This document shows positions 37,070-63,687 of a DNA stretch of 64,000 nt, piece after piece (position 1 is the first letter of the stretch; each line of letters begins with the position of its first letter). The notes under the pieces are model-generated. The model saw only the letters and a list, made by a program, of their open reading frames with translations. It had not been told where the DNA came from and searched no databases. Made by a program: the position numbers and the translations under genes. The DNA is from a virus (lineage: Duplodnaviria; Caudoviricetes). The stretch is taken from IMG/VR virus record IMGVR_UViG_3300032007_000001. One strand, 5' to 3'.

Positions 37070-39508
37070 CTATACTCCTTTTACGGATTTTGCGGTAATG
37101 CCTCCAAATCCCTTTTCGCCATCTATTATGATGAGATTTCCAGGCTGCAATAATTCCATATTCCTTACATACATGTTACCCCATACAATCACCCTGATTG
37201 TTTCCAATGGACCCAATAAATACAAACGATAATAATTTTTTCCTTTAGCTGTTTTCCTCGTTTCAATATTTTTAATAATTCCGCCAGTTTCTACCATTTC
37301 ACCATCTTTATATTCATCTAACATATGAATTCCAGGATGTTCCATCGGATGACGAATAAAAGATACTTCAAATTTTGTCATTTCTTCTATATATGCTTTA
37401 TTTTTATTGAATCTTACATTTTTCATTGTTTCTTTTGCTTTATCAAATGCATATGTAAATTTATCTATTTCTTCTACTTTTACATTATCTTTTTTGAATA
37501 TGCCTTTAGGCTTACATCTCGTTGCTTCTACTTCTTCAATTGTCTTTCCAAACCTTTCAAGCATGTTTTCTGGAACAACAACAAAACCCTTTTTAGCTTT
37601 TTCTTCTATTAAATCTCCTTCATCAAACTCGTCCAATAATGGTTGACATACTGTGGACAAATCAACTAAATAATTAGGAATTGATTTCTTTTCATTGCTT
37701 TCTCTATATGCATTCAGCCATATCATAATTTGTTTGCGATTCATATACACAAGACATTTATCATCTTTATCAATTACATTAAAAAATTCTCTATCATCTT
37801 CGTTTATTTGACTTGCATTTACTTCCAATGGCACATTATCAAATGCACCAATTTCCATACATACTTCTACGTTCTTTTTATTATGTCCTTGTGCACCTGT
37901 TTTCTCATAAAATTCTTGAATCGTATTAAATGGCTGAGCTGACATTATATCATTGCATCCGGCTTCGCCCAATCCCTTTATGCATTTCAATCCCATTCTT
38001 ATTTCATTCGTTTCAACGTTTTCAATTTCTGCATTGAATTTTGAAATTGAAATATCTGGAGGATTGATTTGCATACCAAAAGCTCTTGCTTCTTGCATAC
38101 ATGTTCCATAATGTTCCATTGGTTCATTATTAAAAAGAACAGTAAAAAATACTAATGGATAATTTGCTTTTACCCATGCACACCAAAAACTAATATACGA
38201 ATAACACATACTGTGACTCTTGTTAAAGAGATAAGCAGAATTATCAATAATAGATTTTGCTATAAATTCACATGCTTCTTTAGGTATTCCTCGTTTTGTA
38301 CCTGATTCAACTGCTTCTTTTTGGAATTGTTCTACCAATGGCTTGTTTTTAGGTTTATCAGGCTTTTCCAAAGCTCTTCTAAATATATCTGCTTCACCAA
38401 AGTCAATGCCTAATAATTCTGCTATTAGACCCATAACCTGTTCTTGATAAACTATACCTCCCATTGTTGGAGCTAATATTTTATCAAATGATGGCCATAT
38501 TTTTCTTAATTTACTTGGGTCTTTTTTAGCTGCGCAATATTCATCCAATCCAGAAGTACCTGGACGAATAAAAGCATTGACAGCTGAAAGTTCTTCCATA
38601 TTTCTTGGCTTAATTTTTTGTATAACTGGTTTTGCAGCTATTCCATCCATCTGGAAAACACCGCGAAGATATTTAGCATCACATATTAAATCCCAAGTCT
38701 TTTCATCATTTATTGGAATTGACATTGTGTGATATTCTTTATTGTAATACTTATTTATCAATTCTAATTCATCATATATGATATCCATTGTCCGTAAACG
38801 AAGAATATCATATTTCATTCCGCCAATTTGTTCAATTTCGTCTTTGCAATAAGCAGATTTATACCATGTATTTCCCGATTTTGTTTCTGCTGCTGGAACT
38901 ACTGGTGTTAAATCTGTTATTTCAAATTCTTCTGGTGCAATAATAATTCCAGCTGGATGTTGGCTAACTGATTTCGGAAGATTTAAGAATAATTTCATGT
39001 AATCTTTAATATGATATTGCTCATATTTTTTGAAAAAATCTACAATTTCAGGTATATCTTTTATATCATCAAATTTTTTAGCATCAGCATCTATTTTTTT
39101 AGCGGCTTTATCAACTTCATCTAATGGAATATCAAAAACTCTAGCTATATCTCTTATTGCAGCTCTTGGCTTCATATATTGAAACGTGGAGATATTGCAA
39201 CAATGATTTTGTCCAAACGTTTTATTTATGTAGTCATATATTTCATCACTTCGTTGATAAGAACTATCATTATCAATATCTGGCACGTGGCCTTTACGCT
39301 TTGGATTTAAGAAACGTTCAAAAATCAAATCATATTCCATTGGGTCAACTTGTGTAATATCCAATGCATAATTCAAAAGAGCTCCAGCACCGGAATTATG
39401 TACCACAAGCCCATCTATATTATATGAATGTACATTTTCAACTTCTAAATCATAAATTTTTCCTTTATACTGAAATGTTTCTTTTTTTGTCAGCCTTTTA
39501 TATTTCAT
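37070..39508 (-). CDS. dnaE: DNA polymerase III alpha, C-terminal fragment, with N-terminal split-intein C-half
   Basis: After 38-aa IntC: SGAGALL...FERFLNP.R...PDIDND, HPAG, KYDIL, GVFQ, RPG, YQEQVM, FNKSHS, C-terminal OB fold. Confidence 0.95.
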   Translation of the reverse strand: MKYKRLTKKETFQYKGKIYDLEVENVHSYNIDGLVVHNSGAGALLNYALDITQVDPMEYDLIFERFLNPKRKGHVPDIDNDSSYQRSDEIYDYINKTFGQNHCCNISTFQYMKPRAAIRDIARVFDIPLDEVDKAAKKIDADAKKFDDIKDIPEIVDFFKKYEQYHIKDYMKLFLNLPKSVSQHPAGIIIAPEEFEITDLTPVVPAAETKSGNTWYKSAYCKDEIEQIGGMKYDILRLRTMDIIYDELELINKYYNKEYHTMSIPINDEKTWDLICDAKYLRGVFQMDGIAAKPVIQKIKPRNMEELSAVNAFIRPGTSGLDEYCAAKKDPSKLRKIWPSFDKILAPTMGGIVYQEQVMGLIAELLGIDFGEADIFRRALEKPDKPKNKPLVEQFQKEAVESGTKRGIPKEACEFIAKSIIDNSAYLFNKSHSMCYSYISFWCAWVKANYPLVFFTVLFNNEPMEHYGTCMQEARAFGMQINPPDISISKFNAEIENVETNEIRMGLKCIKGLGEAGCNDIMSAQPFNTIQEFYEKTGAQGHNKKNVEVCMEIGAFDNVPLEVNASQINEDDREFFNVIDKDDKCLVYMNRKQIMIWLNAYRESNEKKSIPNYLVDLSTVCQPLLDEFDEGDLIEEKAKKGFVVVPENMLERFGKTIEEVEATRCKPKGIFKKDNVKVEEIDKFTYAFDKAKETMKNVRFNKNKAYIEEMTKFEVSFIRHPMEHPGIHMLDEYKDGEMVETGGIIKNIETRKTAKGKNYYRLYLLGPLETIRVIVWGNMYVRNMELLQPGNLIIIDGEKGFGGITAKSVKGV
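39395..39508 (-). other. Split intein C-fragment (IntC, 38 aa)
   Basis: MKYKRLTKKETFQYKGKIYDLEVENVHSYNIDGLVVHN followed by Ser+1; block F YDLEV and terminal HN. Confidence 0.93.
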
Positions 39509-39511
39509 AAT

Positions 39512-39652
39512 TTATTCCTTTTCTTTACTTTCATAAAGTGATTTAAGTTCAAGTAACCATTTTTTTAATTGTAAATGCTCGTCTATACATTCTTTACAAG
39601 TCATTGTTTTAACTTTATCATCTATATGTGCAATGGCTTCTTCTAAAGACAT
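39512..39652 (-). CDS. Small hypothetical protein (46 aa, MSLEEAIAHI...CKEC...HLQLKKWLLELK)
   Basis: Translated by hand; AAAGGAG RBS; ends 3 nt before dnaE-C start. Confidence 0.65.
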   Translation of the reverse strand: MSLEEAIAHIDDKVKTMTCKECIDEHLQLKKWLLELKSLYESKEKE

Positions 39653-39748
39653 ACTAACAACTCCTTTCGTTATATGTTATTTTATAAAATTAAAGAATAA
39701 AAATTTTTCTAAAATAAAATCGAATAACATATTCTGGAGGAAATAAGG

Positions 39749-40690
39749 TTGAAAGAAAAATCAAAATTAAATAAAACAATAGATATATCAATAGAAGAAG
39801 GCAAGCAATATCTCGAACGTTGTATAAAAATAGAACATCAAGTAACCATAAATGATATTCTTAACAAAACAATAATAGGCAATACATTTGATGTATTAAA
39901 AAATCTGCCAAGCAATTTCGTCGATTTACTTATTGTAGACCCTCCATATAATATAAACAAAGATTTTCATGGACAAAAATTCAAAAAAGAATCTGATGAA
40001 AGTTATGAAGAATATACAGAAACTTGGATTAATACTGTAGAACATACATTAAAAGATAATGCTTCCATATATGTATGTTGTGATTGGAAATCAACATCAT
40101 CAATTTATAGAGCTTTGAAAAAACATTTTATTGTTCAGAATCGTATCACGTGGCAAAGAGAAAAAGGCCGTGGAGCTTTAATGAATTGGAAAAATGGCAT
40201 GGAGGATATTTGGTTTGCTACGAAATCTAAAAATTATACATTCAATGTAAACGATGTAAAAATAAGAAGAAAAGTAATGGCTACATATAAAGTAGATGGA
40301 AAACCCAAAGACTGGGAAGAGACCGAGGACGGAAATTTTAGAAATACATATCCATCTAATTTTTGGGACGATATTTCTATACCATATTGGTCAATGCCAG
40401 AAAACACAGCTCATCCAACTCAAAAACCAGAAAAACTTCTAGCAAAACTTATTCTTGCTAGTTCAAATAAAGATGATATTATCCTTGACCCATTTGTTGG
40501 TTCTGGTTCAACATCTGTAACTGCTAAGAAATTGGGAAGATATTATGTAGGAATAGAAATGAATCAACAATATTGTGTATGGGCTGAAAAGCGTATAGAA
40601 ATGGCAGACAAAGATATTGGAATTCAAGGATATGTCGATAATATATTTTGGGAAAGAAATACAACACCAGTACAGAAGAAAAAAGAATAG
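39749..40690 (+). CDS. Orphan DNA methyltransferase, N4-C/N6-A beta class
   Basis: Motif IV DPPY precedes HPTQKP and motif I DPFVGSGST; GGAGG RBS with TTG start. Confidence 0.9.
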   Translation: MKEKSKLNKTIDISIEEGKQYLERCIKIEHQVTINDILNKTIIGNTFDVLKNLPSNFVDLLIVDPPYNINKDFHGQKFKKESDESYEEYTETWINTVEHTLKDNASIYVCCDWKSTSSIYRALKKHFIVQNRITWQREKGRGALMNWKNGMEDIWFATKSKNYTFNVNDVKIRRKVMATYKVDGKPKDWEETEDGNFRNTYPSNFWDDISIPYWSMPENTAHPTQKPEKLLAKLILASSNKDDIILDPFVGSGSTSVTAKKLGRYYVGIEMNQQYCVWAEKRIEMADKDIGIQGYVDNIFWERNTTPVQKKKE

Positions 40691-40776
40691 AACAAATTTG
40701 TCTATAATAAACATGTTATTTTGCACTATTTTCTTTTAGTGTAAAAAATTTAATTTTATAAAAGAGGTCTTAAAAA

Positions 40777-41016
40777 ATGAAAAAGGAAACTATTGCCGCT
40801 ATTCTTGGATTTTTTGTTTGGGGATTGTTTTACGTTGAAAGAAGCAAGAAGATTTTCATGGCAATCGCCGGATTGTGCGTAGCAAGTTATGTATTAGTCA
40901 ACTTTGTTTCGCCAACCGCTGGTCTTATTGTAAATATTGCTGGTGCTTATCTTGGGCATAAGTGGATGAAGGAAAAGCTTGATGCTGAAGGCGAAACTAC
41001 AATGATCGAAGAGTAA
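40777..41016 (+). CDS. Small membrane protein
   Basis: 79 aa with two to three hydrophobic segments; GAGG RBS. Confidence 0.7.
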   Translation: MKKETIAAILGFFVWGLFYVERSKKIFMAIAGLCVASYVLVNFVSPTAGLIVNIAGAYLGHKWMKEKLDAEGETTMIEE

Positions 41017-41022
41017 AAAATT

Positions 41023-41050
41023 AAAAGACGGTCTAAATTGACCGTCTTTT
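41023..41050 (+). terminator. Intrinsic terminator
   Basis: AAAAGACGGTC / GACCGTCTTTT. Confidence 0.75.
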
Positions 41051-41106
41051 TTTATGTCACAAAATCAATCTATGTCTTATATTCCCTTAAAAAATTATAA
41101 AAACTA

Positions 41107-41135
41107 TTTACATTTCTTCAAATTTGTTATATAAT
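41107..41135 (+). promoter_or_regulatory. Sigma-A-type early promoter
   Basis: TTTACA-17 bp-TATAAT. Confidence 0.75.
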
Positions 41136-41162
41136 ATTGATAAATCAAAGGAGGTAGGCTAT

Positions 41163-41498
41163 ATGAATTATCTTGTATTCAAATTATCCATGCCTCATTG
41201 TGGGTCATGGAATAACAAATGGTCGTTGGAAAATGAAAATTTTACAATTGCAAAACGTTTTCGAAAATGTGATTTTGAAAAACTTCCCAATATAGTCGGA
41301 AAATATCATGAATATCGTTGGGATGATGGTTGGACAGCTGTTGTTAACGTACAACATCTTACAAATAGCAAAGATGTAAAACAACTAACCAAAAATTCAA
41401 AAGGCTTTTGTGGTTATGATTGGATGATTGACTCTTTACTAAAATTTGGAAAAATTATGCCAGAACAAGAACAAAAAAAGTATATGAAAGGAGAATAA
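41163..41498 (+). CDS. Hypothetical phage protein
   Basis: ATG 41163 after AAGGAGGT; Trp-rich motifs GSWNNKWS, YRWDDGW, GFCGYDWM. Confidence 0.7.
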   Translation: MNYLVFKLSMPHCGSWNNKWSLENENFTIAKRFRKCDFEKLPNIVGKYHEYRWDDGWTAVVNVQHLTNSKDVKQLTKNSKGFCGYDWMIDSLLKFGKIMPEQEQKKYMKGE

Positions 41499-41500
41499 TT

Positions 41501-41866
41501 ATGAACTTCATACATGTAACCGAAAAAGATAAAAGTGTTTTGAAGGATTTGTACGACGATTCGGCGCTTACGATTGAAGGATTGGACTATGAAGATGAGT
41601 CAATGCAAGATTTTGTTGACATCGTTGACGGATGTGTTGGATTAAAAACAAACAACATTTACGTTATTTCTGGCAAAGTTATGAATAAAGTCTATCGTCT
41701 TACTGGAGACAATCGTTATCCCGATGATTTGCACATCGTTTCTATCAAACTTTCTGATATGAAAAACCCCAGTGAAATTATCATGAAGCGATTTGAATTC
41801 GGTGGAAGATGGTTTGACGACATTGTAGATAACAACAAACGCAGAGAAAAAGAAAAACATGGATAA
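41501..41866 (+). CDS. Hypothetical phage protein
   Basis: 121 aa with AAGGAG RBS; RWFDDIVDNN. Confidence 0.7.
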   Translation: MNFIHVTEKDKSVLKDLYDDSALTIEGLDYEDESMQDFVDIVDGCVGLKTNNIYVISGKVMNKVYRLTGDNRYPDDLHIVSIKLSDMKNPSEIIMKRFEFGGRWFDDIVDNNKRREKEKHG

Positions 41867-41870
41867 ATTA

Positions 41871-41895
41871 AAAGGCCAACAGTATGTTGGCCTTT
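41871..41895. terminator. Bidirectional terminator
   Basis: AAAGGCCAAC / GTTGGCCTTT between convergent genes. Confidence 0.75.
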
Positions 41896-41899
41896 TTAA

Positions 41900-42235
41900 T
41901 TATTTTGCAACCATTTCCCATGATTTTTCAAATTCTTCTCTTAATTCATCGATGCAATCCTCACAATCGTTTTCAAACAAAGAAATCATTCTTTCGTAAG
42001 AATGGCTTTCAGCTTCCATTGATTTTATAATAGATTTCATTTTTTTACGAATATCATCTATATCGCTTTCGTCTGTTGCTGTTTCAAATTTATTGAATAA
42101 ATCATTAACATCTTTTTCAAAATCTTCTGCATCTTTTTTTGAAAGTTCAAGGAATTTTTGCATTAAAGACTTAAATTTATCAAATTTGCTAGCAGCCAAT
42201 TTATCCATTTCTGCTTGTTTTTTTAAGTGTTTCAT
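41900..42235 (-). CDS. Helical acidic protein with MKHLKKQAE leader
   Basis: 111 aa, AGGAG RBS. Confidence 0.65.
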   Translation of the reverse strand: MKHLKKQAEMDKLAASKFDKFKSLMQKFLELSKKDAEDFEKDVNDLFNKFETATDESDIDDIRKKMKSIIKSMEAESHSYERMISLFENDCEDCIDELREEFEKSWEMVAK

Positions 42236-42342
42236 ATCTATGCTCCTGTTAAAAAATTTTTTTTACAATCTATTTCTAAAATATTTTGAATGGTTTATTA
42301 AATATTTTAATTAAGAGAAATTTTTTTATAGGAGTAAAAACT

Positions 42343-42987
42343 ATGTTTGTAAAAAGATATATAGAAGCTTCCAAAAAAGAAGCTAGCCAAATTAAAAATA
42401 TTATAAAAAGAAGAATGTTCTTAGCTTTCCGCATGAAGATAGCTGGAATAGTAGAAGACTTAAAGACATTTGACAAATTTCAAAAATATTTCGTCACTAA
42501 AGAAGAAGCAGAACAAAAAGTAAAAGAACTAAAAGAAAAAGGTTCTGAAAACGAACAAGACTTCAAAGATGCTGAAACCTGGTATGAAATCAATAATAAT
42601 ATACAAGAAGTATACGTTTACAGCACAGATGGAGATGAAATATCTCTTGGAAAATGTTGTATGGTAGAATTCAATCAAGGTAATGTATTATCAGGTATGA
42701 AAAAATACGTTGTTTTGGCTGGAATATACAGAGTGGACGAAAAAGGCAAAAAAGAAACACCAATGATAGCATATAAAGACTATATTGATTTAAGAATTGA
42801 AGATGCTATAGAAAAATTAGCAAGTGAAGGAATGTTCGGTTACGGAAAAACGTATAAATGCATGAGAACATATAAAGCTAATTTTAATCAAATATCCGGT
42901 TATGCAAAGAAAGTATTGGAACATGACCAAAAATTGAAACAGCAAAAAGAGCGTCAAGAACAAGAAAATGAAAAAAATGTTGCGTGA
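42343..42987 (+). CDS. Hypothetical protein, module copy 1 gene A
   Basis: ATG 42343 after AGGAG; paralogue of 43623..44237 (MFxKRYIEASKKEA...). Confidence 0.75.
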   Translation: MFVKRYIEASKKEASQIKNIIKRRMFLAFRMKIAGIVEDLKTFDKFQKYFVTKEEAEQKVKELKEKGSENEQDFKDAETWYEINNNIQEVYVYSTDGDEISLGKCCMVEFNQGNVLSGMKKYVVLAGIYRVDEKGKKETPMIAYKDYIDLRIEDAIEKLASEGMFGYGKTYKCMRTYKANFNQISGYAKKVLEHDQKLKQQKERQEQENEKNVA

Positions 42988-43010
42988 CGTAAAAAAATGC
43001 ATAAAAACCA

Positions 43011-43039
43011 TTTACACGACGCACGAAATATGGTATAAT
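43011..43039 (+). promoter_or_regulatory. Sigma-A-type early promoter
   Basis: TTTACA-17 bp-TATAAT, TGn extension. Confidence 0.75.
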
Positions 43040-43065
43040 CAACCTCAAGGAAGAGGTGAATAACA

Positions 43066-43554
43066 ATGAAAAAAATCCAAAAACAACTGACAAGGCTAAT
43101 TGGATTTATAAACTATTTCATAAGGAGAGATAGCGAAAATTTCATTGCTATTCAGTTCGACAGAGATAAAGACGTTGGAAATATTGGCGAATATTTTCTC
43201 AACATAATCTCTGGAAACATCGATATTTTTTTTGAGAAAAAAAGACTTGAACCAGAAGAGATTGATTATACGATTAAGATTGTTTGTGAAAAAGCAGATG
43301 AAGATGATATTATTATCGATTCGTCCAAGCTTTTCAATAAAAGAGAAGCAACGATTACTTTCAAAGTAAGAAATATAAAAAGAATTGAAATTTTGCTTGC
43401 TTATAAACTACGAGACTGGGCATATCAATTTGCAAAATGGAGAGAAAATCGTCCAGCAAAATTAGTAATGTGCATACCACCAGAGCAAGACGACAAAAAT
43501 TATAGAGAACATATGAATGAATACATTAAAAATAAAATAGAAAGAAACATCTAA
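43066..43554 (+). CDS. Hypothetical protein, module copy 1 gene B
   Basis: Paralogue of 44294..44773 (MCxPPEQDDxxYREHMNEYIKNKIE). Confidence 0.75.
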   Translation: MKKIQKQLTRLIGFINYFIRRDSENFIAIQFDRDKDVGNIGEYFLNIISGNIDIFFEKKRLEPEEIDYTIKIVCEKADEDDIIIDSSKLFNKREATITFKVRNIKRIEILLAYKLRDWAYQFAKWRENRPAKLVMCIPPEQDDKNYREHMNEYIKNKIERNI

Positions 43555-43577
43555 AAGTGGTTTTAAGAACCACTTTT
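43553..43577 (+). terminator. Intrinsic terminator
   Basis: AAAAGTGGTT / AACCACTTTT. Confidence 0.7.
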
Positions 43578-43622
43578 TATTTTTATTTTTTTAATGAAAA
43601 TAATTTGTAGGAGCAAAGAATC

Positions 43623-44237
43623 ATGTTTATAAAAAGATATATAGAAGCTAGCAAAAAAGAAGCTGAAGGAATTAAAAATATTATCAAAAAAAGAATGTTT
43701 CTAGCTTATAGATTAAAAATAGCAGACATTATGAATGATTTAAAAACATTTGATAAATTTAAGAAATATTTCGTTGAAAAAAATGAGGCTGATGAAAAAC
43801 TAAAAGAATTGCAAGAACAACAAAAAAATGATGAAAATGTAAGAATAGATAGCAAAGATATAGATTGGTACGAGCCAATGAACAAAATAAGAGAATTTTA
43901 CGTTTATAGTTTAGATAAAGATGAAGTAAATATCGGAAAATGTTATTTATTGGATTTTATGAGAAGAGGATACGATGATTTTGTAACGCTTGGCGGCTTA
44001 TATAAAACAGATAGTTCAGGTAAAGAAATTGGAAGTATAATAGGATATAAAATCATGGAAAAACAAGATATTAATGGAAGTATACCAATAATTCAAAATG
44101 AAGGTATAAAAGGATATGGTAAAACATATTATCCAATGAATAACATAACAGCTACATTTTCACAAATTCAAAACTTTGCAAAAACAAAATTGAAAAAGAT
44201 ATTGGAAGAAAAACAAAATCAGCAACAAAGTGCATAA
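43623..44237 (+). CDS. Hypothetical protein, module copy 2 gene A
   Basis: Paralogue of 42343..42987. Confidence 0.75.
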   Translation: MFIKRYIEASKKEAEGIKNIIKKRMFLAYRLKIADIMNDLKTFDKFKKYFVEKNEADEKLKELQEQQKNDENVRIDSKDIDWYEPMNKIREFYVYSLDKDEVNIGKCYLLDFMRRGYDDFVTLGGLYKTDSSGKEIGSIIGYKIMEKQDINGSIPIIQNEGIKGYGKTYYPMNNITATFSQIQNFAKTKLKKILEEKQNQQQSA

Positions 44238-44242
44238 AACTA

Positions 44243-44271
44243 TTTACATTTCGATGATTTTATGATATAAT
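44243..44271 (+). promoter_or_regulatory. Sigma-A-type early promoter
   Basis: TTTACA-17 bp-TATAAT, TGn extension. Confidence 0.75.
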
Positions 44272-44293
44272 CTCAACAAAAGAGGTGATAATC

Positions 44294-44773
44294 ATGAAAT
44301 CATTAGAAGAAAAAATGCAAGAAATTATCAATTTTATTGACATTTTCTTTCATAGAAAAAATGGAAATTGGATAGCTGTAGATTATATTCCAGAAGAGGA
44401 TATAAATGATGTAGCTTGGCTTTACGTTGTTGCTTTAATGGGAAATAATATTTGTTCCGAATCAAGATGTTATAAAAAAAGGATTTATGATTATCATATC
44501 AATTTTAAATGTAAAAAAGCAGAAGAAAATGATATTATTTTAAATAAAGACAGATTGTTTAGCGAAAAATCAGCAGATATTATTTTTATGATAAAAGACT
44601 CTGATGTATTCAAGGATTTATATGTCAATATATTCAATCCATGGTTTAAGAAATATTATATCACGCAAGGGCCAATTGAAATGATTATGTGTGTTCCTCC
44701 AGAACAAGACGATCCAGATTACAGAGAACACATGAACGAATATATTAAAAACAAAATAGAAGGAAAAATTTAA
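44294..44773 (+). CDS. Hypothetical protein, module copy 2 gene B
   Basis: ATG 44294 after GAGGTG; paralogue of 43066..43554. Confidence 0.75.
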   Translation: MKSLEEKMQEIINFIDIFFHRKNGNWIAVDYIPEEDINDVAWLYVVALMGNNICSESRCYKKRIYDYHINFKCKKAEENDIILNKDRLFSEKSADIIFMIKDSDVFKDLYVNIFNPWFKKYYITQGPIEMIMCVPPEQDDPDYREHMNEYIKNKIEGKI

Positions 44774-44777
44774 GAAC

Positions 44778-44808
44778 AAAAGCAGTGGTACAATGGTCCA
44801 CTGCTTTT
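44778..44808 (+). terminator. Intrinsic terminator
   Basis: AAAAGCAGTGG / CCACTGCTTTT. Confidence 0.75.
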
Positions 44809-44898
44809 TTATTGTATTTAACAAAATATAAAAGTTTTTCATTTTCTATAATTAATTAGGAAGATATGAATGAAAATTATAGAAGGTGAAAAACTTTT

Positions 44899-45279
44899 AT
44901 GTCTATAAACCTAAATGATATATTGACATACGGTGGCGCTAAATTTCAAGTCGTAAAAGCAGCTACATCAAAAGATATAAATACATTAAACAATAAAATA
45001 AACGAACTTTCAACAATTTTTAGAAAAAACTCCACAGCATATGCTGTTGGGTCTATTGTTTTTTCTGCTTCGCTTCCTTCTGGTTTCGTATTAGAATGTA
45101 CGACTGCTGGAACAACAGCATCAACCGAACCAACAATTAATAATGTTACTGAAGGAAATACAATATCTGACGGAACAGTTACATGGACATATAGATGTTT
45201 ACTTATGGCGAAAACAGCATTAGCAATTAACGGGAATGTTCTTGTTTTTAGTAATGGTACAAGAATTTGGGTAGAGTGA
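44899..45279 (+). CDS. Short tail-fibre adaptor-like protein
   Basis: Shared N-terminal peptide plus RKNSTAY.VG...LECTTAGTT..TEP...DGTVTW domain also at the start of 47142 and 52067. Confidence 0.7.
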   Translation: MSINLNDILTYGGAKFQVVKAATSKDINTLNNKINELSTIFRKNSTAYAVGSIVFSASLPSGFVLECTTAGTTASTEPTINNVTEGNTISDGTVTWTYRCLLMAKTALAINGNVLVFSNGTRIWVE

Positions 45280-45285
45280 TATATC

Positions 45286-46050
45286 ATGGCAATACTAGTC
45301 AAACAACTTCATGTATTAAATCAAAATTCAGAACAAGAAGATTTTGAAATTGCAACCACAGCTGAGGAAACTGGAAATACAGAAAATTTTATGACTTGTA
45401 TGGTTGACGGTGAAACGGTATATGCTGGGCTTGATACAGATACTACAGTTTCTAGTTTCCTAGTTCAAAAAGCTGGAATAAATTATGCAGTCAAACATAC
45501 TGGAACTCCTCCATATGTTCCTGGAAGCGAATCTTATACTGTAGCAGGAACCTATACATTTACTGCGCCTTATACTGCTGATTATACAATAGAAATAGCC
45601 GGTGGCGGTGGTGGTGGAGGAGGAACGTGTACTTGGACTGGTCAAAGCTTAAAATCTGGAAGCAGTTCAGCTTATGGAGGAACTGGTGGAAATGGAGCAT
45701 TAGAAACGATAGTTGCTTCTTTGATTGCTGAAGAAACGTATTCTGTTGTTGTCGGCGCTGGTGGGTCAAGTGGGTCTAATTATTCTTGGAACGAACGTAT
45801 TACGAAGGTTGGACAATACTCCGCATCTGCTGGTTCTGGACAACAAGGAGGTACATCTTCTTTTGATAACACAACGGCTATTGGCGGTTTGGGTGGTGGC
45901 GGCGGAGGATTAACAATTCTTGCTGTCCAACTGCAATATTACGGTAGAGCAGCAACTACTGGTTCAAATGGAACTTCTTACGGCAATGGTGGTCAAGGAG
46001 GAGCTGGAGCCACAAATGGCAGTCCAGGCTGGGTAACAATAACATGGTGA
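45286..46050 (+). CDS. Glycine-rich tail fibre / receptor-binding protein
   Basis: AGTYTFTAP...IAGGGGGGGG...VVVGAGG...GSPGWVTITW glycine-rich domain. Confidence 0.75.
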   Translation: MAILVKQLHVLNQNSEQEDFEIATTAEETGNTENFMTCMVDGETVYAGLDTDTTVSSFLVQKAGINYAVKHTGTPPYVPGSESYTVAGTYTFTAPYTADYTIEIAGGGGGGGGTCTWTGQSLKSGSSSAYGGTGGNGALETIVASLIAEETYSVVVGAGGSSGSNYSWNERITKVGQYSASAGSGQQGGTSSFDNTTAIGGLGGGGGGLTILAVQLQYYGRAATTGSNGTSYGNGGQGGAGATNGSPGWVTITW

Positions 46051-55011: not shown

Positions 55012-55014
55012 ACG

Positions 55015-55302: not shown

Positions 55303-55818
55303 TTATTTAATTAAATCAATCTTAAAATTATCTGGCCATAATTTAATATAATATGAAATGCGAGTTTCGCAAGGTTCTTCATGTGTATATGAACGTTCTT
55401 CTTCTTCATCATATTCTTCTACTTCATATGTATCTCTTTCAATATCATATGTAAATTCATGCTGTTCCAAACCTTCACCAAAACCGTCACTGCATTGACC
55501 TTCAATCCAATCTTTAAGTTTTTCAATTTCTTGGTCATTTAAGATGCGATTTGTTGTTACTGTGGAAATCAATTTACCATTTTCCAATTTCATCGAAATA
55601 CCAGTAGCAAAATCAAAATCATCTCTAATAACTTCATTTAAGTATTCAACATCTTCACTTTGCATAAATGCGTTCAATTCATCTTCATCAAACTTAGAAT
55701 AATCTTCTTCGTATGCATCTTCTTCACCAGTTTCTTGGCAATAAGATTCAACATTCATAACATAATTACTTTCAAAAGTATAAACATTGTTTTCTGCTTT
55801 TTTAATAAGATGTTTCAT
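55303..55818 (-). CDS. Acidic hypothetical protein with MKHLIKKAE leader
   Basis: GGAGG RBS; motif WIEGQCSDGFGEGLEQ. Confidence 0.65.
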   Translation of the reverse strand: MKHLIKKAENNVYTFESNYVMNVESYCQETGEEDAYEEDYSKFDEDELNAFMQSEDVEYLNEVIRDDFDFATGISMKLENGKLISTVTTNRILNDQEIEKLKDWIEGQCSDGFGEGLEQHEFTYDIERDTYEVEEYDEEEERSYTHEEPCETRISYYIKLWPDNFKIDLIK

Positions 55819-55860
55819 TGAAAAAATCCTCCATTATAACTTAAAAATAAATTATATCAC

Positions 55861-56682
55861 TCAATAATGTATATTGCTTGATTTATTGTTATCTTTATAT
55901 TGAAATACTGGTCTAAAAGACGATAAATAATCGAATTTTACAGTTGTTGATTGTTGATGTTTAGCATGATTAGATGAAGAACTAGCTGTCCAATTATAAG
56001 TTAATGTGTATGTATCTTTTAATTTCGCAATTGTTTCTTTTTTAGTACAGTTTGTTAAAAAAGATTTTTGCTGATATTCATAATACTTAAATTCCATGTT
56101 TGTAATGTTCTTTACCCAAAAATCTCCAATTATGTTAATTCCTAATAATAGCTGTTTGGCTGGATATGAATATGTGCATATATTACTGTTAATATTATCT
56201 TGTAAACAATTTGCAATAACATTAATAGTATATTCATATGATGTTGTATTTTCTTTAGAAACATTCCCATTACAAAGACTATTTCCGTATTCCGGATATT
56301 TAGCAATGATACTATTTTTATTTTTCATAATATTCCATCCAGCCGATGTCATTGGATTTACAACATTATCGTTTCCTCTTCTATACATACCAAAAGCACA
56401 GTAAATTGAATGTGATGGCGTAATAGCAAAATTCCAAACAGCATCGTTGTATTTTGTTATTGACCCGTTTAATGTACTATTTATTAAATATTTTTCTAAT
56501 TCATCTTTAGATAAAATTCTAACGTTTATTTGATTTACTGAAAAAGTGTCTTCGTCACTATCAGCTTCTAAAAGTGTATCTAAGGCGTTTTGTATATTTG
56601 GATTAGATGTGTTATATCCATTAGAAGATAAGATATCTAAGATTTGTGTTTTAACTTCATTAATTGTAGAAATAGGAATCAC
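55861..56682 (-). CDS. Variable-core paralogue 5 (RILS/NSTLNG...FRPVF family)
   Basis: VRILSKDELEKYLINSTLNGSI...AVW and SFRPVFQYKDNNKSSNIHY. Confidence 0.75.
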   Translation of the reverse strand: MIPISTINEVKTQILDILSSNGYNTSNPNIQNALDTLLEADSDEDTFSVNQINVRILSKDELEKYLINSTLNGSITKYNDAVWNFAITPSHSIYCAFGMYRRGNDNVVNPMTSAGWNIMKNKNSIIAKYPEYGNSLCNGNVSKENTTSYEYTINVIANCLQDNINSNICTYSYPAKQLLLGINIIGDFWVKNITNMEFKYYEYQQKSFLTNCTKKETIAKLKDTYTLTYNWTASSSSNHAKHQQSTTVKFDYLSSFRPVFQYKDNNKSSNIHY

Positions 56683-56692
56683 CTACTTAAAT

Positions 56693-57358
56693 TTAATAAT
56701 ATATATTTGTAGACTTTTTATTATCTGCGAAATTAAAAACTGGTCTAAATGAAAGATTTATGTTAGCTGTAACGATAGTATAGTAATCTCCCCATTTTCC
56801 TCGCGCATATACTTGTGCCGCTTCTGCATTTACATTCAATGTTTTGTCTGCGTATTGAGTTACAGACTTTGTAGCAATATTACCTGATGATAAATAAGAC
56901 CCTTGACTTGCACTACTATAACATTTCAGAAGTATGTTTCTTATTATTGAATATTTGAATTGTTTATTTTGGTTATGAGATGATAATTCTCCATACATTT
57001 CAATTGTATATCTAGCATAATGAAGATAAGTAGACTGGTCAACATAATTAATAGCGTATGTGATTGATGTGTCTTGACTATATCCTGGATTTGATTGTCA
57101 AGCACCGCATGCACTATATGTATTTGGTTTATCATCATAATGTCACACATTAATATTTGTAGCACTAATACTTCCGTCTAATGTACTATTTTTTATAAAT
57201 TTGTCATATTCTAAATTAGACAAGGTTCTAACGCTAATAGAACTTTTTTTAATGGCAATATCATTTTTTTGCAAATCGGTCAATTGGTTTTTTAACGATG
57301 AATTTAAGTCAGAATTAATAGGCCGAGTATATAATTCATCTGAAATATAATGTGACAT
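56693..57358 (-). pseudogene. Variable-core paralogue 4, interrupted by two in-frame TGA codons
   Basis: Single frame of 222 codons; TGA at 57143-57145 (aligned with W of paralogues) and 57098-57100; ends SFRPVFNFADNKKSTNIYY. Confidence 0.75.
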
Positions 57359-57370
57359 ATTGACCTTTCA

Positions 57371-58084
57371 TTATGAAAAAATATTAGTAGACTTATTGTT
57401 ATCCACATATAAAAATGCTGGTCTAAAAGAATTATGGATATTATAAGTGTGAGTTATTGTCCATTGGTTATGACCATTATTATATACATTGGTTGGTCCA
57501 TATTGATTAGAAAACGTTGCGATTGATTTACTTATATTTTGCAATTTAGAAAAAGTATGAAAAAAAGTATATGTGCTATAGTCGTAATAGCCGTAAGAAC
57601 CCTGATATGTAAATACAAAATCCGTAACCTGTTCTATTGGAAAATATGCTATACCCGTGTTAGATGTATTATTTGAAAGAATTTCACTATATATGGTAGT
57701 TGATGGAATTGTCATTTTTATACCATTTCCAGTTGTATCTCTCAATACAGAACTAACAGGATAATGTAATTTTGATGCTATACTTGCATTACAATCATTC
57801 CAATGATTCTGACTTGCATAAGCATAATGTAAGCCTCCAGCAAGCCCTTGGTAATGCCACACATTTATATTTTTCTTTGTTACAGAACCATTAAGCGTGC
57901 TATTTACTATATATTTATCATATTCGCTTAAAGATAAAATTCTAACAAAAATTGAATTATAATTAAGACTTATTTCATCACTGGTTTGAGAATTTACGAT
58001 TAAATCTCTGGATTGTTGAAATTCTTCAAGTGTATTCGCATTTATCAGTTGATTATATAATTCATTTGAAATAACATAAGACAT
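57371..58084 (-). CDS. Variable-core paralogue 3
   Basis: VRILSLSEYDKYIVNSTLNGSV...NVWHY and SFRPAFLYVDNNKSTNIFS; ATG 58084 after AGGTG. Confidence 0.75.
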   Translation of the reverse strand: MSYVISNELYNQLINANTLEEFQQSRDLIVNSQTSDEISLNYNSIFVRILSLSEYDKYIVNSTLNGSVTKKNINVWHYQGLAGGLHYAYASQNHWNDCNASIASKLHYPVSSVLRDTTGNGIKMTIPSTTIYSEILSNNTSNTGIAYFPIEQVTDFVFTYQGSYGYYDYSTYTFFHTFSKLQNISKSIATFSNQYGPTNVYNNGHNQWTITHTYNIHNSFRPAFLYVDNNKSTNIFS

Positions 58085-58089
58085 ACATT

Positions 58090-58911
58090 TCACCTAAAAA
58101 TATTATCTGATTTATTGTTATCCTTAAAGTTGAAAACCGGACGGAAAGACGGCATATATCTGATATCATAATTATAGTTAAGTGGATAATGTGAATAAGA
58201 ATAATAAGGCTCAATATAAAAATTATATCTTTTAGCTAAAACAGAATTTTCATTTGTTTTATTAGTAAGTATTATAACTTCCTTATCAGTAAGTTTATAA
58301 TAAAATCCACTTAAATTTAACTTTGTATTCTCATCTGCTCCTCCGACGCCATATACAAATTCAAAATCATAAGTATTGTCTCCACCTACACTATTTTGCA
58401 ACAATGTATTATTTTGTAATAAACTTGTGTAAATTATAATATCAGAAATTACATTATAATCAGATATATAACCATACCTTCCATAATCAACCTGATAACG
58501 TGTTCCCCCTATTTCTGGATTACATACGAGAACCTGTTGATTTACATGCGATAATGCTATTTTAGAGTCAAAGGGGAATTTTACAATATAATTGTTGTTA
58601 TTACACACTCCGCCTTGTTGTTTTGCATTTGACTTGCGTGAAAGTTGGAAAAAAGCATAAAAAACACCCTTAATTTTACCAGTATACTGATAATGAAAAA
58701 CTTCGTTGTTACCAGCTAGAATAGAGCCGTTTAATGTGCTATTAAATATATATTTTTCATATTCTTCTTTAGATAATATTCTTATAAGAATTTTATTGTT
58801 TAAATTCTTATTATCTACATTAGAATTATTATTTAATATATCTAATGCTTCTTTAGATATTAAAGAAGCAAGATTATTATATTGTTCATCTGTTAAATTA
58901 ATTGTTTTCAT
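58090..58911 (-). CDS. Variable-core paralogue 2
   Basis: IRILSKEEYEKYIFNSTLNGSI...VFHY and SFRPVFNFKDNNKSDNIFR. Confidence 0.75.
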   Translation of the reverse strand: MKTINLTDEQYNNLASLISKEALDILNNNSNVDNKNLNNKILIRILSKEEYEKYIFNSTLNGSILAGNNEVFHYQYTGKIKGVFYAFFQLSRKSNAKQQGGVCNNNNYIVKFPFDSKIALSHVNQQVLVCNPEIGGTRYQVDYGRYGYISDYNVISDIIIYTSLLQNNTLLQNSVGGDNTYDFEFVYGVGGADENTKLNLSGFYYKLTDKEVIILTNKTNENSVLAKRYNFYIEPYYSYSHYPLNYNYDIRYMPSFRPVFNFKDNNKSDNIFR

Positions 58912-58922
58912 ATTATATCAAC

Positions 58923-59596
58923 TCAATAGCAAATATTTTGAGATTTATTATTATCTTGATAAGTAAAAACTGGACGGAAACCCAATATAATATCATATGT
59001 ATAATAAGGGTCCATATTTAACCCAGTGTATTTTGGTGTTCGTTGATTTAAGTTTTTTATAAAATTTTTATTGGCTTGAAACGAAGTTTCAATATTAACA
59101 CTGTGATATTTGTCTTTACCGTAATAAGTTGGGAAAAAATATCTATAACTGATTTTTTTGTTTTTCTTGATATACAATTATTATTTTCATTATTTTCACT
59201 TAATTCATATATAAATACTAAGTGACCAAAAGCTCCTTTTATATCACTTGTACGTATTCTATAAATATTAGGATTATTATATAATTTACTATTGTGTGCA
59301 TCCTTGTCACCAGTATAGTACCATACAAGTGCTGACGCACCATCTCTATCACAAAAATGAAATACGCTATCGCTTCGTTTGTTTATTGCGCCATTACAAG
59401 TGTTATTCATTAAATATCTATCATATTCACTATTAGATAAAATCCTAATTGCGAATATATTATTATTTAATTTTTCATTATTGTTCTCTTTAAAAGAAGC
59501 AATAAATAAAGTTTTACTTTCTTCATTAGAAAATGAAGAAAGTAATTGGTTATATGTTTCGTTTGAAATGTTTGCCGTATACGACACAATCATCAC
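58923..59596 (-). pseudogene. Variable-core paralogue 1, split by a single-base frameshift
   Basis: ORF 59057..59596 has IRILSNSEYDRYLMN; overlapping ORF 58923..59177 has GFRPVFTYQDNNKSQNI; total 674 nt, one short of in-frame; A7 and T6 runs in overlap. Confidence 0.7.
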
Positions 59597-59718
59597 CAGA
59601 AAATATTAGTTAATTTATTGTTATAAACTACATCTACTACAAATGGATGTACCACAACACCCTCTATCCCATAGCTATAAGCTAAGCATTTAGAACTACT
59701 TTTTTGTAGAATTTTCAT

Positions 59719-60006
59719 TTAATTACCATATTCATATAAATATCTTTTCATAATTTCAAACCTAACGGTTTCTATTTCTTTTTCCAATTTAAAAATATAT
59801 CTATTATACTCAGAATAATTGTTCAAAATAAATAATGAAAAAAATTCTTTTTTATTTTTCAAATTAAAAATAGAATCTAAAACAGAAATGCCTTCTTTTG
59901 ATAAAAAAGATGATTCCATCGTAATGACGAAACCATCTGCATCAAACGATATTAAAATTTTAATACCAAAACTTTTCTTATTAAATCTTTTTATAAAAGC
60001 ACTCAT
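59719..60006 (-). CDS. Hypothetical protein
   Basis: 95 aa, ATGA overlap with upstream gene. Confidence 0.5.
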   Translation of the reverse strand: MSAFIKRFNKKSFGIKILISFDADGFVITMESSFLSKEGISVLDSIFNLKNKKEFFSLFILNNYSEYNRYIFKLEKEIETVRFEIMKRYLYEYGN

Positions 60007-60776
60007 ATAAACTTCGCCATCTTAGCACATACATCGTATATATATGCATTTTCTTCATCGTAAAGATAATACATAGACCTTACATAATTGAAAAATTCCA
60101 ATATGTTAAGCAAATAATGACATTGCCTATTTGCTTCTCCGAAATACTCAAGATTTATCCTATATGTATTATGTACACCGTCTCTTCCATTCATATATTT
60201 TGTGTCCATTGTATCGCAATCGTTCATGTGATTATATGCTTCTCTTAAATTGACAAACATATAATGCCCATGACAATGGTCAAAAGCACTAAAGAATGGC
60301 GTATCACTAAAAATAAGCAAAAACGGATTTTCACACGTACTTAAATAATGATTTATTTCTCTATCATTGAATGCTGCTTCTCTAACAGCCGTTTTTCCAT
60401 TTTTCAATTGAAATTGACGAATTGCTGTAGGACCAAGCATTTTTACGTCAACACCAACTCTAAACCTTGAAGAAAAATCTATAGCACTATAATCAACGTT
60501 TGGGTGGTTCTTTGTAAACGTATATACATTTACATCACCATTGTACTTAAATACACTTCCGAAAAAATAATTTTTCGAAAAAGATATTTCTCCAATTCTT
60601 CCTTCTATTAAAGCTTTACATTTCCGGTCAGCTTGTTCTGGTCTTAAATTATTGACATAATTATAGATACCAGTTGTATGGTCCTTAAAAATTGGAGAAT
60701 TATTTATTAACGTCTGCATATATTCAGAACAATATTTTTGCAGCAATTCTTTTTGTAACCAATGCATTTTCATCAC
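60003..60776 (-). CDS. Possible PD-(D/E)xK nuclease-fold protein
   Basis: GRIGE helix followed by IDF...GVDVK pattern. Confidence 0.4.
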   Translation of the reverse strand: MMKMHWLQKELLQKYCSEYMQTLINNSPIFKDHTTGIYNYVNNLRPEQADRKCKALIEGRIGEISFSKNYFFGSVFKYNGDVNVYTFTKNHPNVDYSAIDFSSRFRVGVDVKMLGPTAIRQFQLKNGKTAVREAAFNDREINHYLSTCENPFLLIFSDTPFFSAFDHCHGHYMFVNLREAYNHMNDCDTMDTKYMNGRDGVHNTYRINLEYFGEANRQCHYLLNILEFFNYVRSMYYLYDEENAYIYDVCAKMAKFI

Positions 60777-60815
60777 CCATTTTATATTTTACCATAAAAA
60801 TGCTTTTTTGGTTTA

Positions 60816-61256
60816 TTATTTTGAAAAATTTTTTATAATTTTTGATGCTAATTTTCCATCAAACATGCCAGCATAATTTTCTTTTAATTTATTCATTACC
60901 AATCCAATTATTTTCTTATCGTTAATATCAAAGTCTTTTATATAATTTTGAATAACCTCTGTCAGTTCTTCTTCAGTTAACTGCTTTGGAATATACTTTT
61001 GAAGCAATTTAATTTTATCTTCATATTCTAAGACTCTAGATGGGTCTTTTTTCTTTAGTAAATCAATGACTTCTTCTGATTTAGACTGAAAATTCTTCAT
61101 TATCTTAATAGCTTCTTCGTCTGTTGTTTGACGATTGCCATTGTTTTTACCAAACATCACAACATCAGAATATATCGTTGAAAGAAATGTCACCACGTCT
61201 TTTCTTTTGGCCTTTCTAGCCTCGTCCAAATCTTTCTTAATAGTATCTACTATCAC
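60816..61256 (-). CDS. GatB/YqeY domain protein
   Basis: IKKDL.EARKA, TTDEEAI, KYIPKQLTEEEL, IG.VM..LK..Y.G.FDGK.AS. Confidence 0.85.
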   Translation of the reverse strand: MIVDTIKKDLDEARKAKRKDVVTFLSTIYSDVVMFGKNNGNRQTTDEEAIKIMKNFQSKSEEVIDLLKKKDPSRVLEYEDKIKLLQKYIPKQLTEEELTEVIQNYIKDFDINDKKIIGLVMNKLKENYAGMFDGKLASKIIKNFSK

Positions 61257-61672
61257 TTGTATATCTCCTCTCTAATCTTTTCCAAATCACCATGTATAAT
61301 GATAGGAGAAAAACCGTGTATCTCATCATATAATATTCCTGGTGGGATATCATTATAGAGATAAATCTTCTTCTTTTTCATAAATGCTTCATATATTTCT
61401 ATGAACGTTGAACCGCCAATATAATTTTTTTGATTCTTAGTGGAAAAATTCAATACTAATACAGCATCAACTTCTCTAATTCTTGCTCTTGACAAATAAA
61501 ACATTGATTTTTTAAATAACTGATGCGTATCATTTTCCCAACTTTTATCTTCAGCAGTTGGATTATCATAATTATTAGGAAGAAGAACAGTATGCCCAGA
61601 TTGAATCAATTGTCTTTGTATATCTGGTATTACGTTATAAAATCTTTTGCTGCATATAATCCAAATTTTCAT
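61253..61672 (-). CDS. Nucleoside 2-deoxyribosyltransferase-like protein
   Basis: KI.I..S.RFY, I.EVDAVLVLN, YIGGSTFIEI..A...KKKIYL. Confidence 0.6.
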   Translation of the reverse strand: MKIWIICSKRFYNVIPDIQRQLIQSGHTVLLPNNYDNPTAEDKSWENDTHQLFKKSMFYLSRARIREVDAVLVLNFSTKNQKNYIGGSTFIEIYEAFMKKKKIYLYNDIPPGILYDEIHGFSPIIIHGDLEKIREEIYK

Positions 61673-61676
61673 AATA

Positions 61677-62042
61677 TCATTCCTTTACAAATTCTTTACA
61701 CTGGAAACCATTTTCGTTTAGCCATTCCGCTACTATATGTCTATGACAAAAATCAATTGGTTTTTCATAACACAATAATGCTATATCTTGATTATTTGAC
61801 ATTTTCATTAAATCGTCAATTACATTTTTGATAATCAATGGCTTTAATCTCTCTTCTTTGAAACGTTTAGTATATAAATCATTGTTTCCAGTTTCTTTCC
61901 ATTGTTTGAAAATATCCCATGATGGAGCTAATTTTTTATATTCTAACCCGTTATAAAAATCAGGAGATTTGCCGCATATTGCTATTGTTACAATATTTTT
62001 TGGTAAATGTCTCATATATCCAAAATAAGATGTATAAATCAT
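61677..62042 (-). CDS. DUF488-family protein
   Basis: MIYTSYF, KLAPSW, ALLCYEKP.DFCHRHIVAEWL. Confidence 0.8.
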   Translation of the reverse strand: MIYTSYFGYMRHLPKNIVTIAICGKSPDFYNGLEYKKLAPSWDIFKQWKETGNNDLYTKRFKEERLKPLIIKNVIDDLMKMSNNQDIALLCYEKPIDFCHRHIVAEWLNENGFQCKEFVKE

Positions 62043-62057
62043 CTATAAACCTCCATT

Positions 62058-62171
62058 TTATTTATGTGATTTTTCATTTTTAGTGAAAATATAACAATTA
62101 TTGAAATAAAATCCTAATGCAATAGCAACCATAAAAAATACAAAACAAATAGCTGCAGCTTGCGCATTCAT
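62058..62171 (-). CDS. Small single-pass membrane protein, 37 aa
   Basis: Hand translation MNAQAAAICFVFFMVAIALGFYF...; GGAG RBS directly after dnaE-N stop. Confidence 0.5.
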   Translation of the reverse strand: MNAQAAAICFVFFMVAIALGFYFNNCYIFTKNEKSHK

Positions 62172-62184
62172 TGCAATCACTCCA

Positions 62185-62487
62185 TTATTCTACTTCACAA
62201 ACAACATCATTAATTTCCAATTTATCTGCTTCTATCCACTGCGGAATTCTTACGTTGTTATCAAAATCATAACTTTTGATTGCTAAAATTTTATGGTCTT
62301 TCGTAATGCCATTTATTTTTTTATCTTCAAATTCAAAACTTAATAATTCTTCGTCAACATCATATACAAATTTATTGATTACTTCATGCAAACAATTATC
62401 ACTAGCATAAACATAATCACCAATCTTTATATCTTTTAATTTATTTTTTCCATCTAAAGTTCTAACAATATTATTACCACATATACA
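62185..62487 (-). other. Split intein N-fragment (IntN, 100 aa)
   Basis: Starts with Cys1 (CICGNNIVRT), IKIGDYV, block B TKDH, WIEADKLEINDVV, then stop. Confidence 0.93.
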
Positions 62488-63687
62488 CCCACGACCTGGG
62501 CCGTTAGCCATTTTTGCTTTGTATCTTATGAACGAAATGATAGAATCATACAATATAAAATACGTTTCAAATCCCATATCTTGTATAACTTTCATTTCAT
62601 GCATTGCGCGCATTCTATCTTTTTTAGATTGGCAATTTTTTCTTGTTAGACCATTCAAAAAAAGATATGTAAGATATTTTGTTTTTTCCAAATCTTTTTC
62701 ATTAATTGATTTAGATAATTCTTTCCAATCATTAAAAGCGTCATCATCTTTTGGTATCTTAACGCTTGGTAAATAATGTTTATCTGAAGAAAATTCAGTC
62801 ATACATTGTTTGGCTATATTTTCTGTATTTTCTACAGCTTCTAATATAGCTTTTTGGTCCAATTTTTCATGACCGTCTCTCTTAAATGCTTCCAATACTT
62901 CTTCTTTGGACATTATATAATAAGTATTGCCACCATAAGTCCAACGTTCTGGATTTGACATTTTGTCTTTACTTTGCATGCATAAAAGAACATCATGTGC
63001 TTCTTTATTTTCTTTTACAAGATAATGTGCGTCTGTTGTTGCTACCAATGGAATCCCCATTTCTTTTGAAAGAGAAATCAAAACTTCATTAACTTTCGCT
63101 TGGTCTTCCATTGCAGTTGGCTGTATCTCTAAATAAAAATTCTCATGAAATAATTTATTATAATAAGCTATCCATTTTTTAGCAGATTCTATATCATCTT
63201 TTTTTATACATTGTGGTATGCGACCAGCAACACATGCAGAAGTTGCAATTAAATTATCAGTTCCAACTTCTTCTAAACATTTATCATCAATTCTTGGCTT
63301 ATAGTAAAAACCTTTTGTAGCACCAAGCGAAGCCAATTTTGAAATTTTCTTATAACCCTCCATATTTTTGGAAAGTATAATCATATGTTCATTTCTATAA
63401 CTTCTATAATGTTCTATATCTTTATTCAACATATCATCAGTGACATAAAATTCCTCACCGACAATAGGCATAACGTTGTTTTTCGTTGCTTCGTTATAAT
63501 GAAACATAACAGCATATAGATTGCCATGGTCTGTTATGCAGCTATACGCTTGATGATTTTCGTTATATTGATTATTAAAATCTTCTGTCAATTTCTTATT
63601 TGTTTTTACCAAGTCTTCAACTCTCAAACACGAATCCAATAGAGAATATTGAGAATGAACATGTAAATTCACAAACATATTTGGCAT
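62185..63687 (-). CDS. dnaE: DNA polymerase III alpha, N-terminal fragment (PHP domain), with C-terminal split-intein N-half
   Basis: LHVHSQYSLLD, ITDHGN, GFYYKPRID, ATTDAHY, MGFETYFIL, ends GPGRG then 100-aa IntN; ATG 63687 after GAGGTG. Confidence 0.95.
   Translation of the reverse strand: MPNMFVNLHVHSQYSLLDSCLRVEDLVKTNKKLTEDFNNQYNENHQAYSCITDHGNLYAVMFHYNEATKNNVMPIVGEEFYVTDDMLNKDIEHYRSYRNEHMIILSKNMEGYKKISKLASLGATKGFYYKPRIDDKCLEEVGTDNLIATSACVAGRIPQCIKKDDIESAKKWIAYYNKLFHENFYLEIQPTAMEDQAKVNEVLISLSKEMGIPLVATTDAHYLVKENKEAHDVLLCMQSKDKMSNPERWTYGGNTYYIMSKEEVLEAFKRDGHEKLDQKAILEAVENTENIAKQCMTEFSSDKHYLPSVKIPKDDDAFNDWKELSKSINEKDLEKTKYLTYLFLNGLTRKNCQSKKDRMRAMHEMKVIQDMGFETYFILYDSIISFIRYKAKMANGPGRGCICGNNIVRTLDGKNKLKDIKIGDYVYASDNCLHEVINKFVYDVDEELLSFEFEDKKINGITKDHKILAIKSYDFDNNVRIPQWIEADKLEINDVVCEVE

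Follow-up and report, generated by a model that had tools for sequence, protein, structure and literature searches.

A phage DnaE encoded by two distant genes that carry the halves of a putative split intein at the GRG/S site

The window analysed here is a stretch of 64,000 nucleotides, bases 225438-289437 of a 504,279-bp IMG/VR virus record (IMGVR_UViG_3300032007_000001) that is rated complete by CheckV; the isolate nearest to its phage is Bacillus phage G. The DNA polymerase III alpha (C-family) protein of this phage, DnaE, is encoded there by two distant genes, dnaE-N and dnaE-C. The broken end of each gene carries what appears to be one half of an intein, named IntN and IntC for the N- and C-terminal parts.

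The two dnaE genes

The genes and the intein halves, with lengths in amino acids (aa) and the evidence from open reading frames (ORFs) or searches in brackets, are as follows.

62185..63687, minus strand: dnaE-N gene; 400-aa N-extein (PHP and start of palm, ending in GPGRG), 100-aa IntN and stop codon (ORF, Pfam, homologues)
62188..62487, minus strand: IntN, 100 aa; Cys1, block B TKDH, net charge -8 (profile matches; alignment with the N-terminal part of the contiguous phage G intein)
37070..39508, minus strand: dnaE-C gene; 38-aa IntC, Ser+1 and 774-aa C-extein with the rest of the palm (including PDIDND), fingers, HhH and C-terminal region (ORF, Pfam, homologues)
39395..39508, minus strand: IntC, 38 aa; basic N-terminus, block F YDLEV...H, block G VVHN (Pfam and profile matches)

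This architecture, 400 + 100 aa and 38 + 774 aa in two minus-strand ORFs, had been proposed in a sequence-only reading of the window, and the ORF coordinates and residue counts agree with it. DnaE-N is read from the ATG at 63687 (MPNMF...); a longer frame from a TTG at 63771 was rejected, as the homologues begin at the MPNMF start. Cys1 is residue 401 of DnaE-N and directly follows GPGRG, which sets the N-extein at 400 aa. IntN begins CICGNN and ends CEVE, and its charge is made up of 21 acidic (D + E) and 13 basic (K + R) residues. IntC runs from MKYKRL through YDLEV to VVHN, after which the extein begins SGAGALL; its net charge is +2, with five basic side chains and a net charge of +4 in the first ten residues. 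Start codon, stop codon and ribosome-binding site are present separately for each half: a stop stands after CEVE, and a ribosome-binding site and ATG come before MKYKRL.

The Pfam palm family of PolIII alpha, PF07733, is cut exactly at the break: positions 7 to 70 are matched in the N half and 66 to 259 in the C half. PHP is found in the N half, and the finger and HhH (HHH_6) domains in the C half. Joining the exteins gives a DnaE of 1174 aa (400 + 774) with the domain order PHP, palm, finger, HhH of DNA polymerase III alpha. The earlier claim that ligation would restore the GPGRGSGAG motif also holds, the junction GPGRG-SGAG being that of intein-less DnaEs such as the one from Streptomyces phage Jay2Jay (GPGRGSGAGS). 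A partial match of Streptomyces phage DnaEs to IntC was examined and set aside as spurious; the Jay2Jay DnaE has 1094 aa and no intein.

The break lies inside the conserved G-S motif (GRGS), about 40 residues before the catalytic PDIDND. The G-S motif of the PolIII alpha palm, a Pol-beta-like nucleotidyltransferase, contacts the incoming nucleotide. With the break in this motif and so close to PDIDxD, therefore, neither half should be active alone. The site used by the cyanobacterial DnaE intein reads AYLFNKSHS in the window and is uninterrupted, as had been stated.

Evidence for a class-1 split intein

The set of splicing residues is complete: Cys1 as the nucleophile at position 1, block B TKDH (TxxH), the block F Asp and His, the terminal His-Asn and Ser+1. 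All of those named in the sequence-only reading were read in the two ORFs and are conserved in relatives, and the combination is that of class-1 inteins of the HINT superfamily. The halves have the form of a naturally split intein, with separate genes, a stop and a start of their own and a break between block B/N4 and block F.

By itself, IntC aligns with the final 36 positions (120 to 155 of 155) of Pfam Intein_splicing, and also with the C-termini of solved inteins in the Protein Data Bank (PDB). A profile of five IntC sequences retrieved almost only intein C-termini from the PDB (KlbA, NpuDnaB, DnaX, RecA and PI-PkoII). IntN alone gave HINT matches only below threshold; a four-sequence IntN profile matched the gp41-1 intein (E 2e-4), a bacterial intein-like (BIL) domain, PI-SceI and the hedgehog HINT domain. 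With the whole phage G intein, a single-sequence search of the PDB likewise gave no significant intein match, and only profiles succeeded.

A structural model was generated with AF2 for P0153, a relative with a contiguous mini-intein (134 aa) at the GRG/S site, and the window halves were included as rows of the alignment. The model had a mean pLDDT of 85. In Foldseek the best hit was gp41-1 (TM 0.84-0.86, rmsd 2.2 Å), followed by NpuDnaB, Prp8, NrdJ-1, NpuDnaE and Ssp DnaE, with sequence identities of at most 27%. Together with the profile matches of IntN and IntC to solved inteins, this model of a relative points to a HINT fold. The end of the window IntN maps to residue 168 of the model, in a loop (167-169) before the long C-terminal hairpin, and in larger inteins at the GRG/S site the extra domain is located at this same loop. 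Npu DnaE and gp41-1 are split at the equivalent place.

The splicing residues are retained throughout the split relatives. None of the 36 split IntN sequences lacks the Thr or the His of block B, and each of the 31 that can be aligned at position 1 has Cys1; the 36 have a median net charge of -9. On the C-terminal side, every IntC that was read (about 12 sequences) keeps Asp and His in block F, HN at its end and Ser+1 after it. This retention holds down to about 36% identity. Compared with a relative on a 416-kb contig, IntN is 64% identical (its extein 76%) and IntC 84% (its extein 68%); the intein halves are conserved to about the same degree as the exteins.

These counts bear on the possibility that the halves serve only as a clasp, docking the two pieces of the polymerase non-covalently with no splicing. 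Split inteins do bind tightly, and docking alone could give an assembled enzyme. The retention of every catalytic residue over such a range of identity would, however, be unexpected without selection for the chemistry, and the break falls within the conserved GRGS motif. A clasp of this kind seems distinctly unlikely.

Split relatives and the distance between the halves

Related loci were found with an alignment as the query; a query with the single N half returned none. In independent assemblies, N halves of 497 to 532 aa end in IntN and C halves begin with IntC. The distance between them varies.

L028 (304-kb contig): 1.6-kb gap; a 517-aa gene between the halves with a treble-clef zinc finger and a homing-endonuclease-associated repeat, a classical fractured gene
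L024: 5.5-kb gap
L020-L023 (four contigs): 7.3-kb gap
L019: 7.9-kb gap
Contigs of 380-420 kb from three samples: 13.7-kb gap (computed from the record coordinates for L004 and L005); endonuclease-like genes adjoin both broken ends in the 416-kb relative
Window: 22.7-kb gap; no endonuclease detected
L009 (63-kb contig): reversed order, with the C half first and the N half 7.6 kb downstream

The closest relative, P0006 (ENA ERZ1029112), shows 95%/90% identity (extein 95%). The break is also present in ENA ERZ3810914, JGI 3300011005 and 3300011008, ENA ERZ28573574 and several IMG/VR contigs, with differing gaps.

As the record is a single metagenomic assembly, the halves might in principle be contiguous in the real genome. 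A stop codon closes the N half, and the C half is preceded by a ribosome-binding site and opens with an ATG; the same break recurs in at least four independent assemblies with differing gaps and, in one case, the reversed order. In P0006 the gene order after DnaE-N is the same as in the window, and misassembly is therefore ruled out. We give an artefact almost no credence, and the refutation that the sequence-only reading had allowed for, a gap due to misassembly, does not apply.

The size of the family was estimated with an IntN profile against 1.84 billion representative proteins, which gave 689 matches at E <= 0.001. Among the best 150 of these, at least 28 clusters end right after IntN at GxGRG (an approximate figure, since some may be contig ends) and contiguous inteins at GxGRG account for at least 57 clusters.

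Some further intein fragments were seen at these loci. About 1.2 kb downstream of its true IntN, L019 has a second, partial IntN-like copy (12648-12881), which is 59% identical over residues 24-100 and has no Cys1. In L028 the split intein is followed by a 79-aa protein (13041-13280) that comprises IntC and some 43 aa of extein; the remainder of DnaE (19885-21447) is found 6.6 kb further on, past two C5 methylases and an IMPDH/GMP-reductase-like gene. The P0006 contig has a 159-aa ORF (6131-6610 of the listed layout) with a weak Intein_splicing match directly before a 170-aa dCMP deaminase (6615-7127), and in the window's own genome there is an Intein_splicing match in the deaminase region (G000 292692-293111). 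The dCMP deaminase intein may also vary between one-piece and broken forms.

The interval in the window and its genomic setting

In the window the two dnaE genes are separated by 22,676 bp (39509..62184) that contain about 30 unrelated genes, including the following.

39512-39652, minus strand: 46-aa ORF
39749-55011, plus strand: block of plus-strand genes (ORF list)
39749-40690, plus strand: N6/N4 DNA methylase (Pfam)
47142-53824, plus strand: three paralogous tail-fibre genes with Phage Tail Collar domains (Pfam)
Within the interval, minus strand: paralogue array (ORF list)
60816-61256, minus strand: YqeY (Pfam)
61677-62042, minus strand: DUF488 (Pfam)

No homing endonuclease family was detected in this interval by Pfam. 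As the plus-strand block stands between two minus-strand halves, a single transcript cannot reasonably cover both. The N half has genes for hydroxymethyl-cytosine nucleotides as its neighbours, and the C half has SbcCD and CTP synthase. A 37-codon ORF encoding a hydrophobic peptide (MNAQAAAICFVFF...; 62054-62167, minus strand) was noticed on reading the sequence and starts 18 bases past the stop codon of DnaE-N.

The PF07733 matches in the 504-kb record are confined to these two genes, and a search of the whole record with two Pfam families for PolA/PolB gave no match, which leaves this DnaE as the sole polymerase detected in the phage. This bears on whether the polymerase gene is simply broken and decaying, with replication carried out by a host or other enzyme. 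Selfish elements do often interrupt the genes of jumbo phages (PMC12880540; PMC7824862). Both halves are nevertheless full-length open frames with PHP, palm, finger and HhH intact, they are 68-95% identical to relatives, and the split arrangement persists across divergent phages. Taken with the absence of a PolA/PolB match, this makes decay highly improbable.

A census of intein halves in the genome gave exactly one IntN and one IntC of the GRG/S-site type. Outside the window (L016:694-1821; G000:C1 ~168293-169420 of the same genome) there is a free-standing 375-aa ORF with an intein splicing domain that encloses an HNH endonuclease. It ends ...IIVHN followed by a stop, and no in-frame extein was seen on either side; possible identities are an orphan intein and a homing endonuclease of the HINT type.

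Proposed mechanism

From the observed anatomy, conservation, homology and arrangement we infer that the halves associate and splice, and that the polymerase needs them to do so; very probably they form a functional class-1 split intein that trans-splices the phage DnaE into one enzyme. The replicative DnaE would be made as two polypeptides from separate transcription units. The acidic IntN and the IntC with its basic N-terminus would then associate, assisted by charge, into a HINT fold. An N-S acyl shift at Cys1 would give a thioester, which would be attacked by Ser+1; cyclisation of the terminal Asn, assisted by the penultimate His, would follow, and an O-N shift would complete the peptide bond that joins GPGRG to SGAG in the 1174-aa DnaE.

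Several points weigh against this reading. Splicing is deduced here from sequence alone. The single-sequence search of the PDB with IntN gave no significant intein match, and the protein that was modelled, P0153, is a contiguous relative and not the window pair; at the aligned positions its identity is 32% with the N-terminal row of the window and 43% with the C-terminal row. A search limited to two Pfam families for PolA/PolB may leave room for an unrecognised polymerase or for use of the host replisome. Scans for sigma-70 promoters and terminators performed at chance level in this AT-rich DNA.

The arrangement could also act as an AND gate: with the halves in differently timed transcription units, trans-splicing would delay the sole polymerase until both programmes were on, and replication would be coupled to the supply of modified nucleotides. 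This is a speculative proposal that we think unlikely to be correct.

Contiguous inteins at the same site

The sequence-only reading had suggested that contiguous and split relatives be sought, and both exist. Apart from the split clusters, the phage G, PhiF1 and metagenomic DnaEs carry the intein in one piece. In Bacillus phage G, gp329 has GPGRG followed by a 245-aa contiguous intein (CFVPGQ...AVHN) and then SAAG. This intein passes the cut-off of Pfam Intein_splicing, and its N- and C-terminal splicing regions are homologous to those of the window; the annotation of the gp329 record makes no mention of an intein. The phage G dnaE (L001:1246-12009; gp329, gp330, gp331, gp339) is itself cut into three ORFs, the first of which is followed by a homing endonuclease gene, and the breaks in it have been ascribed to self-splicing introns (PMC7824862).

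ORF57 of Methanobacterium virus PhiF1 (L012:4785-8315) has a 357-aa contiguous intein at the GxGRG motif, with an N-terminal region close to the window IntN. As PhiF1 is an archaeal virus, the GRG/S allele therefore crosses the divide between bacterial and archaeal viruses. ORF116 of Lactococcus phage 949 has a C-junction of like type, VVHN and then S; its N-junction was not located, and a pattern search found no GxGRG motif in it. Metagenomic DnaEs with mini-inteins at the GRG/S site (P0031, P0153, P0167, P0186) are continuous through the window's break point. In P0167 an IntN-like end (...INDDIIDI) is joined directly to an IntC-like start (KKYQRR...), giving a fused form of the element that the window has in two genes.

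These relatives are consistent with an origin in which a contiguous intein at the GRG/S site was first broken at the endonuclease-insertion loop and other genes were later inserted, moving the halves apart. The earlier description of an independently split intein stands in so far as the intein is split at GRG/S, its halves are separately encoded and it passes all the sequence tests; with contiguous and split relatives at hand, this genome did not invent it in isolation.

Comparison with known systems

The cyanobacterial split DnaE intein (Ssp/Npu) resembles that of the window in many respects. Its host protein is PolIII alpha, and its halves are dispersed at distant loci (dnaE-n and dnaE-c) and separately transcribed. 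It has an acidic IntN of about 100 aa, a basic IntC of about 36-38 aa, a break at the endonuclease-insertion loop and class 1 chemistry. It differs in being bacterial and in lying in the finger domain before CFNKS with Cys+1, whereas the phage intein lies in the palm at GRG/S with Ser+1; the latter is thus not the cyanobacterial DnaE allele. NpuDnaE is 25% identical to P0153 in the structural alignment, a low relatedness. The finger-domain position before CFNKS is given in the text of PMC4760082, which catalogues PolIII alpha insertion sites a-g for bacteria; no description of the lettered sites outside the fingers was found in that text.

Fractured genes with split inteins at non-cyanobacterial sites, including three DnaE loci from the GOS data, gp41-1, NrdJ-1 and IMPDH-1, are described in the text of Dassa et al. 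2009 (PMC2677866), in which the phage-like split DnaE has an endonuclease gene between its halves. There, as in the window, phage-type replication genes are broken by a split intein, and gp41-1 is the best PDB match of the window's family by both profile and fold. The layout with adjacent halves and a free-standing homing endonuclease between them is seen in the distant relative L028, where the gene is endonuclease-like, but not in the window with its halves 22.7 kb apart. Where the three GOS DnaE split inteins are inserted is not stated in the text of PMC2677866; the site may or may not be GRG/S. The inteins of phage G gp329 and PhiF1 ORF57 share the window's insertion site (GPGRG/C...HN/S) but are in one piece.

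A replicative polymerase assembled by a natural split intein is also found in Nanoarchaeum equitans PolB and the split PolB of phages MIJ3 and Aes123 (PMC2677866, PMC6892783, PMC11923092), split PolB inteins being known in jumbo phages (PMC6892783). These are of family B and not C, belong to other intein families and, in the phages, have adjacent halves. A literature search, which was not exhaustive, found no paper on a split intein at the GRG/S site, nor any on a phage DnaE whose split halves are dispersed.

Conclusions

The kind of arrangement found here is already known from cyanobacterial DnaE and from the fractured genes of Dassa 2009; what is new is a family of split inteins and the extreme separation of the halves. 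The value of the finding lies in the size of that family, in the graded series of arrangements and in the distance reached in the window.

The family is well populated and consists of naturally split inteins with Ser+1, a canonical 100 + 38 split and strong charge complementarity. They bear little sequence resemblance to solved inteins: when P0153 was aligned with these by structure, identity did not exceed 27%. With its many natural variants and contiguous mini-intein cousins, the family offers candidates for orthogonal protein ligation. The split inteins gp41-1, NrdJ-1 and IMPDH-1 are earlier examples with Ser+1, so that the new Ser+1 tool once proposed would bring no new chemistry; it would be another, probably orthogonal, family.

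For annotation, two half-size 'DnaE-like' genes that lie far apart may be one enzyme, as they appear to be here. At one end of the natural series formed by the related phages is a fractured gene with adjacent halves, at the other a separation of 22.7 kb, and one case has the order reversed; this series would show a split intein releasing an essential gene from colinearity.

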